A DNA stretch of 64,000 bases from an uncultured SAR86 cluster bacterium (lineage in GTDB: Bacteria > Pseudomonadota > Gammaproteobacteria > Magnimaribacterales > AG-339-G14). The notes beneath the pieces were generated by a model. That model was not told where the DNA came from and ran no database searches. It saw only the letters and a list, made by a program, of their open reading frames with translations. Of this stretch, positions 31,265 through 60,749 are shown in pieces. Made by a program: the position numbers and the translations under genes. Every line of letters begins with the position of its first letter. The first letter of the stretch is position 1. The stretch lies in NCBI GenBank assembly GCA_902525735.1, contig CABZIF010000001.1:258813-322812 (forward strand), given 5' to 3'.

Positions 31265-31341
31265 GGTGGGCGTAGCTCAGTTGGTAGAGCACTGGTTTGT
31301 GGTACCGGTTGTCGTGGGTTCAAGCCCCATCGTCCACCCCA
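31265..31341 (+). tRNA. tRNA-His (anticodon GTG)
   Basis: Extra 5' G (G-1), acceptor GTGGGCG/CGTCCAC, anticodon arm CTGGT-TTGTGGT-ACCGG, CCA encoded. It is near-identical in layout to E. coli hisR. Confidence 0.9.
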
Positions 31342-54130: not shown

Positions 54131-54304
54131 ATGGAAAACAAACACTGGTGGGAAAAAATACCAGATGGTGGTGTTTATGAAGATGCTAATTCTGGCATAT
54201 ACTTTTTTAAAGAAGATGGAAAATTAAAAACATCTTATGAATTCCATATCGGCGCAGGCGGAGATCCAGAAGTATTTCAAGCCTGGAGTAAGGCAAAGAG
54301 CTGA
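54131..54304 (+). CDS. Small hypothetical protein (57 aa), not in ORF track
   Basis: The ATG follows the thiolase stop with no gap. Hand translation gives MENKHWWEKIPDGGVYEDANSGIYFFKEDGKLKTSYEFHIGAGGDPEVFQAWSKAKS*. An uninterrupted 57-codon frame is notable in AT-rich DNA. Confidence 0.45.
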   Translation: MENKHWWEKIPDGGVYEDANSGIYFFKEDGKLKTSYEFHIGAGGDPEVFQAWSKAKS

Positions 54305-54309
54305 TTTTA

Positions 54310-54382
<73 letters not shown>

Positions 54383-54389
54383 CAAGATT

Positions 54390-54548
54390 TTAATAAACTA
54401 AAAATATTATTAACAACAGTGCAGAGATTAAAGATGCAGGGAATAAATACTTTAAAGTTTTAAAATTTAGTTCATCATCATTTTTAAATAAATTTATAAA
54501 AAGAGCTATCAGAATTGTGCCACCAACAAAATAAACTAATGCAGTCAT
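54390..54548 (-). CDS. Small two-TM hypothetical protein (52 aa), not in ORF track
   Basis: Hand translation gives MTALVYFVGGTILIALFINLFKNDDELNFKTLKYLFPASLISALLLIIFLVY*. It starts 8 nt after the stop of the 490-aa gene and ends 8 nt from tRNA-Ala. It has two clear hydrophobic helices. Confidence 0.4.
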   Translation of the reverse strand: MTALVYFVGGTILIALFINLFKNDDELNFKTLKYLFPASLISALLLIIFLVY

Positions 54549-54556
54549 TGGTTTTC

Positions 54557-56029
54557 TTATGCTTGAGTAAGCATCTTGGCTCTTTCTGATAATGCTGTAG
54601 CTTTATTAGAAAGCGAAGAAAGTAATGCCGTTTTATCATTGAGCTCTTTTTCTATTTTTTCTTCAACTATAATGGCCTCTTCTTCTTTTTCACTTATAGC
54701 ATCGAATTTGTCTTGAAAATCTGATAATTCAATAATATCTATATTTAATTCTCCTTTCTCAAATTGTTTGTTTAAAGCATTAATTGATTCCTTTAAATGT
54801 TCTTCTAAGATTGTTGAAAAAGTTTTATGTATAGCTAATTCATTAAGAAGCTTTTCTCTAAGAAGATTTTCTTTTTTTTGTTTTCTAAACAATAAGTAAA
54901 TCCCCAAAGATAAAAATGGTAGACCCAGAGCTAATAATGAGCGATCTTCAAGTCCCGTAATTACCCAACCTCCTCCAAAAAAGATTGCTAAGCCATTGCC
55001 CCAACCTAAACCTGTTATTTTACCGGGCACATTCTTATTTAATTTAGCCAAGGTGTCTTCTTTGTAAGCAAAATTAATTAACTCAAATTTATTTTTTTTT
55101 GAGTTAAAATGAATATCTGCATGTTTACCGTTAAATAAATTTTCAATAAAACTTTTATCCTTGTAGCTTGAAATTAATTTTGAACTGTAAGCTTCTTCGA
55201 CTTTTATTTGCTTAAAGCCAGTTTGTTCATTAATCATTTGTCTTGCAAATTCATCTTGATATTTTAATTTTTCATAAAGTTTTTTATTCTCCCAGCTAGT
55301 ACCAATTTTTTTTTCTTCATCAGATAAACTTTCTGCAATTTCTTCAATTTTTTTAATTAGTTCTTTTTGAGTTTTAATTTTAAATTCTGCATAAATCATA
55401 TCTGAAACTTCTTTCTCTCTTTTGGATTCATTTCTCTTTGTTTCTAAGTCCTTTTTAGATTCTTCTAATTTATCGAAAAGTTCTTTTAAAGGAATGTTGG
55501 AACTTACTTTTTCATAAAAAGAATTAGCGCTCTTAGATTTAATCTCATCGAAAGACGTTCTCAAAGGAGGAAAAATTTCCGATTGTTTTTTTTCATACTT
55601 TTCTTTATCAATTTGAATACTTTTAGTTATTTCACTTGCTTTATCAAACTGAGATTTGATATCAGGAATTGCTGTATCTTTTAAATATTCTATGTCTGCC
55701 AAACAAAGTTCACATTCTTTTAGTAAAGCGTTTTTTTCATAATACAGAGCTTCTTTTTCGCGAGTGCCAATAGATTTTTCACCAGAACAATCTTCGCACA
55801 TCCAAACTGTTCTATAGGTTGTGTGTGTTCTCTTTCGAGAAGTTAAAACAGATCTTTTTAAAGCTTTTTGAGAAGTTTCAAAACCAAGAATTGAGCCAAT
55901 TACTTCTTTTCCTCCAACAGTATTTCGTGACGTCGCTTTAATAGCCTTTTTGGCCCTAACCATAAAATTAGCAGGGGCTTGGGCGCCACATATGTTGCAA
56001 GTAGTTAATCTAAACTTCTTTTTTGCCAT
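54557..56029 (-). CDS. Hypothetical zinc-ribbon / coiled-coil / TM-hairpin protein
   Basis: 490 aa. CxxC dyads at C11/C14 and C78/C81 (plus C106/C109). Long Lys/Glu-rich heptad-like regions. Gly-rich hydrophobic hairpin 'ITGLGWGNGLAIFFGGGWVITGL-EDR-SLLALGLPFLSLGIYLLF' (about aa 338-382), followed by a C-terminal coiled coil. I recognise no family. Confidence 0.7.
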   Translation of the reverse strand: MAKKKFRLTTCNICGAQAPANFMVRAKKAIKATSRNTVGGKEVIGSILGFETSQKALKRSVLTSRKRTHTTYRTVWMCEDCSGEKSIGTREKEALYYEKNALLKECELCLADIEYLKDTAIPDIKSQFDKASEITKSIQIDKEKYEKKQSEIFPPLRTSFDEIKSKSANSFYEKVSSNIPLKELFDKLEESKKDLETKRNESKREKEVSDMIYAEFKIKTQKELIKKIEEIAESLSDEEKKIGTSWENKKLYEKLKYQDEFARQMINEQTGFKQIKVEEAYSSKLISSYKDKSFIENLFNGKHADIHFNSKKNKFELINFAYKEDTLAKLNKNVPGKITGLGWGNGLAIFFGGGWVITGLEDRSLLALGLPFLSLGIYLLFRKQKKENLLREKLLNELAIHKTFSTILEEHLKESINALNKQFEKGELNIDIIELSDFQDKFDAISEKEEEAIIVEEKIEKELNDKTALLSSLSNKATALSERAKMLTQA

Positions 56030-56067: not shown

Positions 56068-58227
56068 ATGACTGGAATAGTTGATGAGGCTCTAAAACAA
56101 GATGGGGATGATTCATTAAATATAGGAAACTATATTAAAGCCTTATTAAGTTTTATTGAAAATACCGCAACACCGATGACTATCGGTATTCAAGGAGAAT
56201 GGGGCAGTGGAAAAACTTCATTGCTTAATCAAATTTGGAATGGCCTTGAAAAAAGAGACTCTGAAAACCAAGACGTAAGATATAAGCAAATATGGATAAA
56301 TGCTTGGGAACATTCTTTACTGTGTTCACCAGAAGAGTGTTTGATAAAGATAATCAATGAAATAATTTCTGAACTTGTAGCTGCAGATACTCAAAAAACA
56401 AAAGCTGAAAAATTAACCAGTGGCATTAATAAATTAGCAAAAGGTGCAGCAAGAATTGGTGGGGCCGTCGCACTTGGAATGGCAGGAAAAGATATTGCTG
56501 ATGATATATTTGATCAACATGAAAACTCAATTAAGCAGTTACGACAAGATTTAAAAAAACTTACAAATGAAATTAAAGGGCTTGAAACCAATCCCTTTGA
56601 TAAATTTATAATCTACGTTGACGATCTGGATAGAATTGACCCACCTGATGCAGTAAGAATATTAGAATTATTAAAAAATATATTCAATCTGGAAGATTGT
56701 ATATTTTTATTGGCCATTGACTATCAAGTAGTAGTAAAAGGTCTTGAAGCGAAATTTGGAAAACAAACGCCTGAAAATGAATGGGAGTTTCGAGCCTATT
56801 TCGATAAAATTATTCAACTTCCTTTTAAAATGCCGATGTCAAATTACGACATAGGAAATTATGTACTTGAATTACTATCGACCATCGATTTTTATTCAGG
56901 CGATGAAGAATTGGATGAAGAATTAATTAAAAACTTTGTAGAGCTTTCTATTACAGGGAACCCTAGATCTATAAAAAGATTAATAAATTCCTTGTCTCTG
57001 ATTAAACTTTTTAATTCATTATCTGACGATTTAGACTCAAATTTTTTAAAAGATAAAAATGGCGCGACCATAATGTTTGCAATGGTCTGTTTACAAACTG
57101 CGCATCCAGATATTTATGATTTGCTTTCTCAAAATCCTGATTTTCAAAAATGGGATGATGAATTAGCCTATAAAGTTACTCAAGGAAAAGAAAAACTAGA
57201 AGAAAATTATGAATTGAATTACAACCAAGCCACTAAACAAGGTGAAGATTTTGATGAAGAATGGGAAAAAATACTTTTTAAAGTTTGTTATTTGAATCCA
57301 AGATCACGTGCTAAGGCAACAAATATATCTAGATTTTTAACTATTTTAATCGATGAATTCAAAGCAGAAAAAAATTCTGAGGAGTTAACAAATCTAATTT
57401 CTAATGCTCTTGGACAATCAGCTATTACAAGCGTGACAACAACTGAAAATCCAAATATAAGACCTGCTAAAGGTTCTTATAAACCTTTTTATAATGAAGG
57501 TTTTGATGACTGGCTTGACCGTAAAATAGAAGATATTTCTATTAGAGCCAAGAAATCTAAAGAAGAATTTTCTATACCGGTTGAAGTCTTTGAGAAACTA
57601 AAATCTTTTGTCGATATTTTAAAAAATGATTTTGGAGCGTGCGATGCTAATGAAAATCCAGATAACGATCTGACATTGCATTACTCTGGAAACTTGACAT
57701 TAAAATACAAAGGAAAAAAGACTTTTAGTTTTTGGGTTGGAACGTCTAATCCAGAAAATAAAAAACGATCTAGAAAAGGTGTTGCTGGAGGAGATTTAAA
57801 TGACCCTCAAAGCTGGGTAATGAGTTCTGAAATAAGTAAACATCCTAAATTTGAAAATAAGCCTCTATTCATAGAAGAGTTAAATATTAAATTTAATCAA
57901 TACAAGCCAGGATATAGAGTGAAAAGTATAAATCCAAGAGAAATAGTCTTACCTGGCGCAGGTGCGCCAGACATTGCTCATATGGGAGTTATTTCAATTT
58001 TAGATTATCCTCATGATTATTTTAAGTTTTTAGTTGAGACTAGTATAGATGCTAGAAAAAATCATAAAGACGAGTTGTTTAATAGGTCTAAAATGAAAGA
58101 AATTGAGGATATTTTTTTTAAGGCTGATGAAGATTCAGCTGAATTTAAAAAGGCGCATGATTTCATTCAAAATTGGAATGCAGATGAAAATGTTTTTACT
58201 ATTAAGGATTATAAAAAAGGGGTATAG
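56068..58227 (+). CDS. KAP-family P-loop NTPase with uncharacterised C-terminal half
   Basis: 719 aa. Walker A 'GIQGEWGSGKTSLLN', then the KAP-typical 'INAWEHS' and Walker B 'FIIYVDDLDRIDP'. No convincing TM insertion in the P-loop domain. About 270 C-terminal residues have no recognisable motif. Confidence 0.82.
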   Translation: MTGIVDEALKQDGDDSLNIGNYIKALLSFIENTATPMTIGIQGEWGSGKTSLLNQIWNGLEKRDSENQDVRYKQIWINAWEHSLLCSPEECLIKIINEIISELVAADTQKTKAEKLTSGINKLAKGAARIGGAVALGMAGKDIADDIFDQHENSIKQLRQDLKKLTNEIKGLETNPFDKFIIYVDDLDRIDPPDAVRILELLKNIFNLEDCIFLLAIDYQVVVKGLEAKFGKQTPENEWEFRAYFDKIIQLPFKMPMSNYDIGNYVLELLSTIDFYSGDEELDEELIKNFVELSITGNPRSIKRLINSLSLIKLFNSLSDDLDSNFLKDKNGATIMFAMVCLQTAHPDIYDLLSQNPDFQKWDDELAYKVTQGKEKLEENYELNYNQATKQGEDFDEEWEKILFKVCYLNPRSRAKATNISRFLTILIDEFKAEKNSEELTNLISNALGQSAITSVTTTENPNIRPAKGSYKPFYNEGFDDWLDRKIEDISIRAKKSKEEFSIPVEVFEKLKSFVDILKNDFGACDANENPDNDLTLHYSGNLTLKYKGKKTFSFWVGTSNPENKKRSRKGVAGGDLNDPQSWVMSSEISKHPKFENKPLFIEELNIKFNQYKPGYRVKSINPREIVLPGAGAPDIAHMGVISILDYPHDYFKFLVETSIDARKNHKDELFNRSKMKEIEDIFFKADEDSAEFKKAHDFIQNWNADENVFTIKDYKKGV

Positions 58228-58290
58228 CTCATTTGGATGAACACTTGCAAACTACGCAAGAAGTTCAAGGTTCGACCCTGCTTAACTCCA
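58219..58290 (+). pseudogene. Degenerate copy of tRNA-Ala (non-foldable)
   Basis: GGGGTATAGCTCATTTGGATGAACACTTGCAAACTACGCAAGAAGTTCAAGGTTCGACCCTGCTTAACTCCA aligns end-to-end with tRNA-Ala at 54310. The GGGG/TATAGCTCA, the anticodon stem CTTGC/GCAAG, GGTTC and CTCCA are all identical. The anticodon loop is AAACTAC (no U33) and the T and acceptor stems are broken. It overlaps the KAP stop codon. Confidence 0.6.
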
Positions 58291-58354
58291 TATGTTTATT
58301 GTAAAAGCCTTATTTTTTTTATAAATAAGTAGTCGTTAATACAAAAAAATTGAT

Positions 58355-60121
58355 ATGAATGATCAGTTAACAATAACCTTAATTTTGTTTGTTCTTTTAT
58401 TTTTCTTTGTATGGGGAAGATGGAGATATGACGCAATAGCTTTAATATTTCTGTCTTTATTTGTTTTATTTGGGTTTATTGAACCAAATGATGCTTTTTC
58501 TGGATTTGCTCATCCTGCAGTTGTAACTGTCGCATTGGTTTTATTGATTAGTAAAGGTTTAGAAAAATCAGGATTTATTCTAATTATTGAAAATAAAATT
58601 CAAAAAATTGCTCAAAATCAAACTCAATTTATGATTGTTTTAACTCTTCTGGCTGCGGTGCTTTCATCGTTTATGAACAATATTGGCGCAATGGCTATGC
58701 TTCTTCCTATTACTTTGGGAATTTGTCAAAAAATGGCTTGGAATCCATCTAGGTTTTTGATGCCATTAGCCTTTGCTTCCATTTTAGGTGGAATGAATAC
58801 TAAAATTGGGACACCTCCAAACATAATCATCTCTGAATTTAGAAGTGAATATGCAGATCAATCTTTTAGTTTCTTCGATTTTTCTTTTATTGGATTGCCT
58901 TTAACTATTTTTGGAATTATTTTTATTTCATTTTTAGGATGGAGATTAATTGCTTTAAGACCAGTTAATTCCTTAGATAATCCATTAATTAAAATTGATG
59001 ATTATCTAACTGAAATGACTATCAAACCAAATAGTCCACTCATCGATATGAGGGCTCAAGATTTTAGAAGTAAACTAGATACAGATACAGCTGTAATTGG
59101 TCAGATAGACTCAACCGAAAAAAAAGTTGAGTTGCATGGAAATTTTAAACTCTACGAGGGACAAATCCTTATTCTAAAAATAAACCCTTCTTCTCTTGCA
59201 GACTTGCAACAAGAATATGGATTAGACGTAGATTCAGAAAACGAATTAACAAAAATAAAAGATTTAGGCAGTATCGAAGCAATAATTACACCAAAATCTA
59301 GACTTATCGGAAGAAAAAATAGTTATTTTAAAAGGCTTGTTGGCGGTGGTTTCTCTTTACTAGGTTTATGGAGAAGGGGATTAAAATATAGATTTAGATT
59401 GGCAAATGAAAAATTCAGATCAGGTGATGTTTTGTTGATAGCAAATAGAGGTAATAAAGATTCTATTGCGGAAAGATTGGAGCTGGCTGGATTGTTGCCT
59501 TTATGGCAAAGAGATTTTGATATTGTTAGAGATTCCTCAAAAGTATTATTTGCTTTTCTAGTATTTATTTTTTCTCTATTTCTGATTATTTTTAATTTTC
59601 TTCCAATTTTAGTGGCATTTTTATTGTGCGTAATTGCTTTTGTAGGTGGAAGGTTGTTAACAGGAGAAAGCGTTTATAGGCACATAGACTGGCCAGTTGT
59701 CACATTACTAGCTGCGATGATTCCAATAGGTAATACACTCACTGAGTATGAAATTACATCTGATTTTGCTTTGTTCCTCGCTAGCTATTCTCAATCTTTA
59801 GATTTTGTTTGGATGATAATTATAATCATGATTATAACAATGCTTCTTTCAGACGTTATTAATAACGCTGCTACAGCTGTAATAATGGGCCCGTTAGCTG
59901 CTTCATTAGCAGTTCAAATTAATCAGCCTGTAGAACCCTTTTTAATGGCAGTTGCAATTGGTGCAAGTTGTGCTTTTCTGTCTCCAATTGGGCATCAATG
60001 CAACACTCTAGTCATGGGACCGGGAAATTATAAATTCGGAGATTATTGGAAAATGGGGCTTCCCTTGGAGATATTAATTATTTTTGTAAGTGTTCCGTTA
60101 ATTGTTTTTTACTGGACTTGA
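58355..60121 (+). CDS. SLC13/DASS-family permease with central TrkA-C (RCK_C)-like domains
   Basis: 588 aa. Polytopic N- and C-terminal halves with 'GTPPN' and 'SPIGHQCN' hairpin motifs. They are separated by a soluble region of about 180 aa resembling two TrkA-C domains. Confidence 0.78.
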   Translation: MNDQLTITLILFVLLFFFVWGRWRYDAIALIFLSLFVLFGFIEPNDAFSGFAHPAVVTVALVLLISKGLEKSGFILIIENKIQKIAQNQTQFMIVLTLLAAVLSSFMNNIGAMAMLLPITLGICQKMAWNPSRFLMPLAFASILGGMNTKIGTPPNIIISEFRSEYADQSFSFFDFSFIGLPLTIFGIIFISFLGWRLIALRPVNSLDNPLIKIDDYLTEMTIKPNSPLIDMRAQDFRSKLDTDTAVIGQIDSTEKKVELHGNFKLYEGQILILKINPSSLADLQQEYGLDVDSENELTKIKDLGSIEAIITPKSRLIGRKNSYFKRLVGGGFSLLGLWRRGLKYRFRLANEKFRSGDVLLIANRGNKDSIAERLELAGLLPLWQRDFDIVRDSSKVLFAFLVFIFSLFLIIFNFLPILVAFLLCVIAFVGGRLLTGESVYRHIDWPVVTLLAAMIPIGNTLTEYEITSDFALFLASYSQSLDFVWMIIIIMIITMLLSDVINNAATAVIMGPLAASLAVQINQPVEPFLMAVAIGASCAFLSPIGHQCNTLVMGPGNYKFGDYWKMGLPLEILIIFVSVPLIVFYWT

Positions 60122-60257
60122 AGAGCATTTCTTGAATTCATTGTCTTCCTAAAGGAGTTAGCTTAATTGACATCTCTATTGACTCATCAGCTTCCAATTC
60201 ATCAAGCTTCTGTGAAAGTCAGGATTTCTATGCTCTGTAGCCTTTGGTGACGCTTAG

Positions 60258-60584
60258 TTATCTGGTCAAAATCTCCATTGCTTTTTTATCGTCTACTACA
60301 GGGACTATTGCAGACTCGCAGACTTCGTTCCATCCATTAGCGAATTCAATTACAAGAGTTGGATCATCAGCCTCAACTATAACTATCCCGTCGCCAGTCG
60401 TAAGGTCATGATACCTAGCAAGCTTTTTAGAGCCCTCTAGGAATTGACCATCAAGCTCATCTAACGTCATGGTAGAAAAAATTTTATATGCCTCTTGATT
60501 GCATTTGAAATCAATCATATAGACAGCCGCATGTGAGATATTACAAAACATTAACATAACCCCTAAAACAAAGTATTTTTTCAT
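60258..60584 (-). CDS. Small secreted protein, DUF3303-like
   Basis: 108 aa with a signal peptide. 'IVIVEADDPTLVIEFANGWNEVCESAIVPVVDDKKA' resembles the remembered DUF3303 C-terminal pattern. Confidence 0.5.
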   Translation of the reverse strand: MKKYFVLGVMLMFCNISHAAVYMIDFKCNQEAYKIFSTMTLDELDGQFLEGSKKLARYHDLTTGDGIVIVEADDPTLVIEFANGWNEVCESAIVPVVDDKKAMEILTR

Positions 60585-60749
60585 TTTATGTCTCCAATAG
60601 ATTTAATAATTTATTATATTAAATTATTATCAATCCACCGTCACTTCTAACTCTTTTTTATTTTTTTCTTTGTTACTTTCTTATTCATTTTTTGGGTTCA
60701 ACAAGAATTTATGCAATGAAATTTAATTTTTTTAATTAATGAATAATTA

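Follow-up and report, generated by a model that had tools for sequence, protein, structure and literature searches.

Flexible genomic islands of a kind comparable to the one analysed here are known from Prochlorococcus and Alteromonas. This report concerns a short tRNA-like element at positions 58219-58290 of a 64-kb stretch of DNA (the window; contig CABZIF010000001.1 of assembly GCA_902525735.1, positions 258,813 to 322,812) from an uncultured SAR86 cluster bacterium. It lies within an island anchored at a tRNA-Ala(GGC) gene, at the joint between a cassette carrying a gene for a KAP-family P-loop NTPase (KAP gene) and a transporter gene. Integration into tRNA genes routinely leaves a whole or partial copy of the tRNA at the end of an island (PMC4383910, PMC9897764), and hypervariable regions anchored at a tRNA but devoid of phage or integrase genes have been described from streamlined marine bacteria in a recent preprint (bioRxiv 10.64898/2026.04.03.716430).

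The Islander-type islands treated in the former accounts (PMC4383910, PMC9897764) combine an intact proximal tRNA gene, a non-working distal repeat, native flanking sequence beyond that repeat, and strain-variable content, and our locus resembles them in these respects: an intact tRNA gene and a same-orientation tRNA-derived repeat stand at the ends, and the island differs among relatives. The definition of these islands also includes a near-identical 3' fragment and an integrase inside the island. In contrast, the element described here spans tRNA positions 1-73 at 69-73% identity, being full length and about 28% diverged; it appears to represent another tRNA-Ala variant, has no integrase beside it, and is located inside a composite island at the KAP cassette/transporter joint rather than at the outer edge. 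With the hypervariable regions of Pelagibacter, as presented in that preprint (bioRxiv 10.64898/2026.04.03.716430), the locus shares an AT-rich marine genome, a single conserved tRNA gene, strain-specific cargo without phage or integrase genes, and cassettes shared between diverged lineages at an identity above that of the core genes. That text deals with islands as wholes, and the terms 'tRNA fragment', 'partial tRNA', 'tRNA remnant' and 'direct repeat' do not occur in its available part, whereas in our locus an internal joint is marked by a tRNA copy with a remnant of its terminator. Like ordinary tRNA pseudogenes of bacteria, our element has lost the cloverleaf, U33 and the anticodon, shows a composition-driven substitution spectrum and is missed by tRNA finders; unlike them, it lies, at a tRNA hotspot, exactly between the end of the cassette and the native terminator, a position that ties it to recombination rather than to simple gene death in place. 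We consider it likely that the element is a dead tRNA-Ala(GGC) copy left as a recombination scar at this tRNA-Ala-anchored flexible island. The features that carry this reading are the following.

58219..58290, + strand: pseudo-tRNA-Ala(GGC), a full-length decayed copy with 19-21 substitutions, mostly GC to AT, and a 1-nt deletion
54310..54383, + strand: functional tRNA-Ala(GGC), called by ARAGORN and scoring 65.3 bits in Rfam; anchor of the flexible island
58299..58327, + strand: relic of the tRNA-Ala 3' flank, comprising the 3' half of the terminator stem, a T-run and ATAAATA

Homology of the element to tRNA-Ala

The element, hereafter the relic, reads GGGGTATAGCTCATTTGGATGAACACTTGCAAACTACGCAAGAAGTTCAAGGTTCGACCCTGCTTAACTCCA. 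Aligned with the resident tRNA-Ala(GGC) gene at 54310-54383, it showed 50 identities over 72 positions with one 1-nt gap, and a second alignment gave 51 of 73; overall, identities ranged from 50 to 53 of 72-73, in line with a preliminary description made from the letters alone, which had estimated two-thirds to three-quarters identity for a full-length tRNA-Ala duplicate. The conserved blocks named in that description, namely the 5' GGGG, TATAGCTCA, GGTTC, the 3' CTCCA and the anticodon stem, are all present. The local score of the relic against tRNA-Ala was 28, which lies 18 standard deviations (sd) above the mean of 5000 shuffles (mean 6.6, sd 1.2, maximum 14), and no other non-self sequence in the window matched tRNA-Ala as well. 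The GC content of the relic was 46%, compared with 32% for the window.

Because a genuine tRNA-His at 31266-31341 scored 27 against tRNA-Ala, nearly the value of the relic, the score alone proves only that the relic is tRNA-like. Its assignment to alanine is based instead on the acceptor, which retains GGGG...CTCCA with G3:U70 and the discriminator A73; on the anticodon stem CTTGC/GCAAG, identical to that of the resident gene; and, weakly, on a search of 50,697 phage records in which the near-full-length matches were solely annotated tRNA-Ala genes (70% identity, E=3). Two exact-pattern scans of viral contigs and a blastn search against E. coli genomes yielded no match to the relic. The 5' acceptor strand and D arm matched at 19 of 26 positions, and the combination of G3:U70, A73 and full-length colinear similarity to tRNA-Ala(GGC) genes is that expected of descent from tRNA-Ala. 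In its sequence, the relic is therefore a full-length homologue of tRNA-Ala(GGC) that covers tRNA positions 1-73.

Loss of tRNA function and pattern of decay

The relic is non-functional as a tRNA. Its anticodon loop reads AAACTAC with A at position 33, so that both U33 and the anticodon are lost; the T stem, CAAGG/CTGCT, retains one G-C and one G-U pair and does not pair around a 7-nt loop; and five acceptor pairs remain, G3:U70 included, two having been lost. The preliminary description had read the loop, the T stem and the acceptor in the same way. ARAGORN with default settings found six tRNAs in the window, the relic not among them, and the Rfam tRNA model RF00005 (gathering threshold 29 bits) gave no match to the relic at E<=10 in either a 6-kb or a 101-nt search. 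The decay claimed earlier was thus borne out by both a tRNA finder and Infernal, neither of which called a tRNA, and a cloverleaf with U33 is likewise missing. Only when the ARAGORN thresholds were relaxed to 85% or less was the relic called, the result being an implausible 'tRNA-Ser(act)' whose acceptor is shifted, and the same setting produced four other obvious false positives in the window. The relic strand alone folds as a rod rather than a cloverleaf (minimum free energy -21.8 kcal/mol, z=-3.3), and neither an intrinsic terminator nor a notable promoter was predicted at the relic.

Compared with the tRNA-Ala genes of the related loci L056 and L061 (the related contigs and loci that we compared bear numbers of the form L0xx), the relic carries 19 substitutions and one deletion, with 15 changes from GC to AT and one from AT to GC, and 17 of 20 changes fall on G/C sites. 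With about 15 of 19 substitutions running from GC to AT, this is the spectrum expected of unconstrained sequence under neutral decay in a genome of 32% GC. The preliminary description had regarded selective retention of the anticodon stem as odd for neutral decay. With 20 of 73 positions changed, however, an untouched anticodon stem has P=0.034, and the probability that some stem among the four escapes is 0.09. For the adjoining loop, with 5 of its 7 positions changed, the probability is 0.015, and for five consecutive changes at any place in the sequence it is 0.049. The kept stem by itself is not statistically remarkable; kept stem and changed loop together form a mildly unusual pattern that was noticed post hoc and that leaves a small probability for a functional or recombination-site reading without establishing one.

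The terminator relic and relatives at the joint

In the related loci L052, L056, L057, L058 and L061, the tRNA-Ala gene is followed by a conserved spacer and a hairpin terminator (...AATAAACATAAGGGTTTGAGAGCATTTCTTAAACCCTTATTTTT...). The segment at 58299-58327 matched the L056/L057 version of this flank at 24 of 29 positions without gaps. It was the best match to the flank in the whole window on both strands, and none of 3000 shuffles reached its score. It begins 8 nt 3' of the pseudo-tRNA and is colinear with it, about 29 nt of spacer and 5' stem having been deleted. By comparison, the resident tRNA-Ala at 54310-54383 has no such terminator flank, and the cassette begins 6 nt after it. Since scores of 17-19 for the flank arise by chance about once per 20-100 kb at other loci, which counts against the reading, the weight of the terminator relic lies in its adjacency and colinearity with the pseudo-tRNA. 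Judged from these alignments, the relic is a tRNA-Ala copy followed by native downstream sequence from which about 29 nt have been deleted.

Relatives retrieved through the thiolase gene on the left flank, whose matches labelled 'Gammaproteobacteria bacterium' were 70-73% identical, carry a single tRNA-Ala(GGC) followed by wholly different genes in each lineage, so that L052, L055, L056-57, L058 and L063-65 have different gene sets after the same tRNA-Ala. The resident tRNA-Ala is identical (74/74) in the near-conspecific contigs L063-L065; it encodes no CCA (CTCCACAA), and no terminator follows it. Homology of the cassette to L022/L023, the closest differently placed cassette, ends no more than about 5 nt from 58219, and from 58321 onward the window is again homologous to L032-35 and L063-65, which lack the relic. 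The relic forms the distal border of a cassette starting right after the intact tRNA-Ala, a point on which the preliminary description is upheld. As also stated there, the KAP open reading frame (ORF) terminates inside the relic, with GGG GTA TAG, the TAG corresponding to tRNA positions 8-10.

The relic is restricted to one lineage, its sole other carrier being the TARA contig L021, which is 97.8% identical to the window overall and identical in the relic. Among roughly 20 related loci, L021 apart, neither an intact second tRNA-Ala nor the relic was found, and the related KAP cassettes examined contained no tRNA or tRNA-like sequence. In L032-L035 and L063-L065, whose transporter genes are 93-97% identical to that of the window, a 238-amino-acid (aa) ion-channel gene lies between KAP and the transporter and the relic is absent; a 79-aa ORF is kept in L033 and L034. 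The KAP gene is full length in L034 and reduced to a remnant of 46-62 aa in L032, L033 and L063-65. The left flank is the same in L063-L065, while L032-L035 do not reach it, and ORFs of 52 aa and about 490 aa are common to the window, L032 and L063-L065.

Foreign type and age of the relic

The T arm distinguishes two types of tRNA-Ala among these lineages. That of the resident gene is GTCGG-TTCAAGC-CCGAC (with its close relatives, GTCGG-TTCAA(G/A)C-CCGAC), while the distant clade has (G/C)GCGG-TTCGATC-CCGC(C/G). The relic T arm, CAAGG-TTCGACC-CTGCT, is like the distant clade, the relic agreeing with that clade at positions 38, 57 and 64 and with L056 at position 49. Under a decay model with the AT-biased composition of the window (Hasegawa-Kishino-Yano, HKY), an ancestor of the L056 type (TTCGATC) was preferred over the resident gene by 6.3-8.5 log-likelihood (lnL) units, and the modelled decay of the relic was about 0.3 substitutions per site. 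Synonymous divergence (dS) separates the window from L063 by 0.28-0.6 and from the TTCGATC-type clade by about 2.5. At about 0.3 per site, comparable to the former value and far below the latter, the relic is far too recent to have arisen before the resident T arm changed; a native copy of this age should carry the resident TTCAAGC, and import best explains its type. The idea that it is a drifted copy of the tRNA at 54310 therefore fits poorly with the non-resident states of the T loop and position 64, which weigh against it by the same 6.3-8.5 lnL units, and the relic is probably not derived from that gene.

Proposed origin and alternative explanations

The favoured recombination-scar explanation would involve the following course. 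Incoming DNA would have carried, besides the KAP cassette, a tRNA-Ala(GGC) copy of its own with the common TTCGATC T loop, and a Campbell-type single crossover with the resident tRNA-Ala would have occurred near the 3' tip of the gene. The upstream product would comprise the resident tRNA body on its native promoter side with the cassette directly after it; the downstream product would be a second full-length tRNA of foreign type right after the end of KAP, followed by the original terminator of the chromosome. The redundant downstream copy would then have decayed under GC-to-AT pressure to about 0.3 substitutions per site, losing the T stem, U33, the anticodon and two acceptor pairs. The 5' half of the terminator would have disappeared in a small deletion, and the KAP ORF now runs a few codons into the relic to stop at TAG. 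A tyrosine integrase, acting in trans or since lost, and RecA are both candidates for the crossover. The tRNA-Ala ancestry, the loss of tRNA function, the terminator relic, the position at a cassette joint, the confinement to a single lineage and the foreign-type sequence are observed; the Campbell-type event, and any order of it relative to the other rearrangements, is inferred.

Several observations, besides the chance scores of the terminator flank, weigh against this course of events. Neither an integrase, a transposase nor a recombinase was found among the ORFs between 52.4 and 63.8 kb or the called genes of the related island versions, no donor with a KAP gene abutting tRNA-Ala was found, and a profile scan of a viral contig collection recovered no KAP relatives. 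The relic is known from two sequences only, with no difference between them within it, and about four informative sites carry the inference of a foreign type. In relatives that have the KAP cassette, the sequence continues through the 79-aa ORF and the ion-channel gene into the transporter without a relic, an arrangement that requires at least one further replacement or deletion. Finally, classical att repeats comprise the 3' part only and are initially near-identical, whereas the relic is full length and its anticodon loop differs at five of seven positions.

The preliminary description had offered two origins, a tandem tRNA-Ala pair split by an insertion and an att-type duplication that has drifted. 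In the former, the KAP cassette would have entered between two tRNA-Ala(GGC) genes and the downstream copy would have decayed. We regard this as a minor possibility: the copy runs from position 1 to 73, a native terminator follows it as it would the last gene of a pair, and an integrase is absent, as this origin would have it, but a single tRNA-Ala was present in 9 of 9 related loci spanning the site, with no further remnants and with no related locus containing two genes or a second relic. The survey of roughly 20 related loci, in which even the closest relatives with the same cassette lack the relic, tells against it, and the states of the T loop and position 64 would require AT-to-GC changes against the mutational bias at the lnL cost given above, in a relic much younger, at about 0.3 per site, than the split from the lineages with that tRNA type (dS about 2.5). 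The att-type origin stood up in part. An intact tRNA at one end, a same-orientation tRNA-derived repeat at the other with native flank after it, and island content that varies among relatives form the standard pattern in the literature (PMC4383910, PMC9897764), and would agree with an element that bore an integrase, entered tRNA-Ala and later lost the integrase and most genes, leaving a classical displaced attR fragment. This direct-repeat layout is upheld; the displaced fragment itself is not, since in this orientation it would consist of the 3' segment only, whereas the 5' strand and D arm of the relic match at 19 of 26 positions, and no integrase remnant occurs in any related island version. 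A strictly classical attR is improbable for these reasons, and it overlaps with the recombination scar that we prefer, differing mainly in the enzyme and in the amount of tRNA on the incoming DNA.

A functional role for the relic, as a tRNA-like element that defines or stabilises the 3' end of the KAP mRNA through processing by RNase P or Z or as a still-active recombination site with the intact anticodon stem for its arms, is very improbable. The intact anticodon stem beside a loop with five replaced positions (P=0.034 and P=0.015), the stable rod, and the identity of the relic in the only other contig that carries it would favour such a role. Anticodon stem-loops are reportedly crossover sites of tRNA-targeting integrases (Williams 2002). 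However, the stem statistic is post hoc and rises to P=0.09 over all four stems, and identity with L021 is uninformative at 97.8% overall identity. The relic is absent from all other KAP cassettes examined, where an ORF of 56-79 aa follows instead, and from near-conspecific contigs; its substitution spectrum is that of neutral decay, the acceptor and T stems needed by RNase P are damaged, and no recombinase gene is present. We likewise give a very low probability to a non-neutral relic in the form of a recombinase core site, in which the kept stem would supply inverted arms around a new overlap sequence and an enzyme encoded elsewhere would still use the site to exchange cassettes at this hotspot, or of a rod serving 3' processing or stability of the mRNA of the KAP defence gene. 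That coding or intergenic sequence should resemble a tRNA by chance has a negligible probability and is effectively refuted. The four other spurious ARAGORN calls at relaxed thresholds speak for it; against it stand a similarity 18 sd above shuffles that is also the top non-self match in 64 kb, the kept alanine identity elements, the colinear terminator relic next to the element, and the GC content of 46% against 32%.

As a further candidate, an integron attC site was considered by the criterion of an R''/R' core pair (RYYYAAC ... GTTRRRY) bounding an imperfect palindrome close to an integron integrase gene. Visual inspection showed a single heptamer resembling a half-site (GCTTAAC), with no GTTRRRY partner and no IntI-like gene, and the candidate was rejected. 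The 3' flank of the relic (TATGTTTATTG) matches the native spacer (CAATAAACATA) in inverted orientation over 11 nt, at a P of about 0.07, which is not significant. The 3' flank of the resident tRNA resembles native post-terminator sequence (P 0.013-0.024); the resemblance falls within AT-rich sequence of the 52-aa ORF and was treated as spurious.

The KAP cassette and the transporter block

The cassette between the resident tRNA-Ala and the relic, and the block beyond the relic, comprise the following features.

54390..54548, - strand: 52-aa hydrophobic ORF (predicted membrane protein) at the left cassette end; its stop lies 6 nt from the tRNA end
54557..56029, - strand: 490-aa ORF, cassette member; Pfam and PADLOC searches assigned no family
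56068..58227, + strand: KAP-family P-loop NTPase of 719 aa (Pfam 2.3e-36; PADLOC PifA/QatA/PDC-S20-like)
58355..60121, + strand: CitMHS/TrkA_C di/tricarboxylate-type transporter (Pfam), second block of the island
60122..60150, + strand: possible second, weaker terminator relic (AGAGCATTTCTTGAA...), the best match in the window to the L052 flank (score 17)

The 52-aa ORF had no match in a Pfam search; it is conserved in L032 and L063-65, and a 62-nt stretch of it is 81% identical in L024/L025. ORFs of 474-494 aa that diverge from KAP occupy the same position as the 490-aa ORF in L024, L025, L032 and L063-65, and in DNA the ORFs of L032/L063 share about 92% identity with the window ORF. Full-length KAP homologues are common in marine metagenomes. 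Most of them terminate at the residue aligned with Y714 of the window protein, which is therefore complete with four extra codons; the final KKGV and the stop codon come from an A-run together with the pseudo-tRNA. Exact look-ups of the KAP and transporter proteins of the window returned no record.

The KAP protein itself is mosaic. Residues 1-200 are 92-93% identical to the homologue P0004, whereas the C-terminal portion of about 250 residues is 56-58% identical to another homologue, P0002, and only 15-26% identical to P0004, a pattern that suggests swapping of a variable C-terminal domain. In L022-L031, L034 and L063-L065, a recurring arrangement places the divergent ORF of 474-494 aa upstream of KAP and an ORF of 56-79 aa immediately downstream, and in L024/L025 it occurs among WYL, RmuC, SNF2-helicase and DNA-methylase genes; the copy in the window lacks the small downstream ORF. 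This arrangement looks like an undescribed KAP-based defence cassette. An internal deletion has cut KAP to the 46-62-aa remnant in L032 (1701-1889), L033 (35-175) and L063 (9006-9194) while the ORF of about 490 aa beside it is intact; part of the population is losing the cassette.

A scan of genome contigs with the transporter found relatives at 42% identity or less. Relatives with a 72-82% identical transporter (L066-L071) have the gene at another locus, in a conserved p450-DUF1295-transporter-DUF1508 neighbourhood, and it occurs in the tRNA-Ala island only in close relatives of the window; the transporter therefore belongs to the island, having been relocated or re-acquired.

Other observations on the island and its joints

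The native flank of tRNA-Ala(GGC), with spacer and hairpin terminator, occurs at L052 8875-8936 and L056 8590-8650 and in L057, L058 and L061 (ATAAGGGTTTGAGAGCATTTCTTAAACCCTTATTTTT), and is strongly conserved over lineages whose synonymous sites are saturated (dS about 2.5). The segment at 60122-60150 directly follows the transporter stop codon and matches the loop and 3' stem of the L052 terminator, and its start is the exact end of homology to L063-65. It may be a second terminator relic at another island joint, which is only suggestive, a score of 17 being reached by chance elsewhere as well.

On the left, the island junction falls right at the 3' end of the resident tRNA-Ala. At 54378-54390 the window lacks the 3' CCA (CTCCACAAG), where the otherwise identical genes of L032 and L063, like those of relatives further away, have CTCCACCA. 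The window shares with the distant clade L055-L062 a 57-aa ORF (54131-54304 in the window) between the thiolase and tRNA-Ala genes, which is absent in the closer relatives L052 and L063-L065, in which the tRNA directly follows the thiolase. This distribution conflicts with overall similarity and is another sign of mosaicism at the locus. Beyond the transporter, a DUF3303 segment at 60232-60653 is 92.7% identical to L055 11273-11694, which starts 25 nt after the L055 tRNA-Ala. The core flanks of the window and L055 are merely 71-78% identical, a disparity that indicates recent cassette exchange between diverged lineages.

Implications

The relic is a known kind of feature and reveals neither a new RNA nor a new mechanism; new here are the terminator relic, the GC-to-AT spectrum of decay and the non-resident T-loop type, and the value of the finding lies mainly in annotation and in genome history. 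The relic pins down one joint within a composite island that lacks an integrase, at the tRNA-Ala hotspot of an uncultured marine lineage, and at about 0.3 neutral substitutions per site it dates the event roughly. On the reading preferred here, the incoming DNA brought the tRNA-Ala type of another lineage, which would be direct evidence for tRNA genes as the recombination handle by which diverged genomes exchange cassettes.

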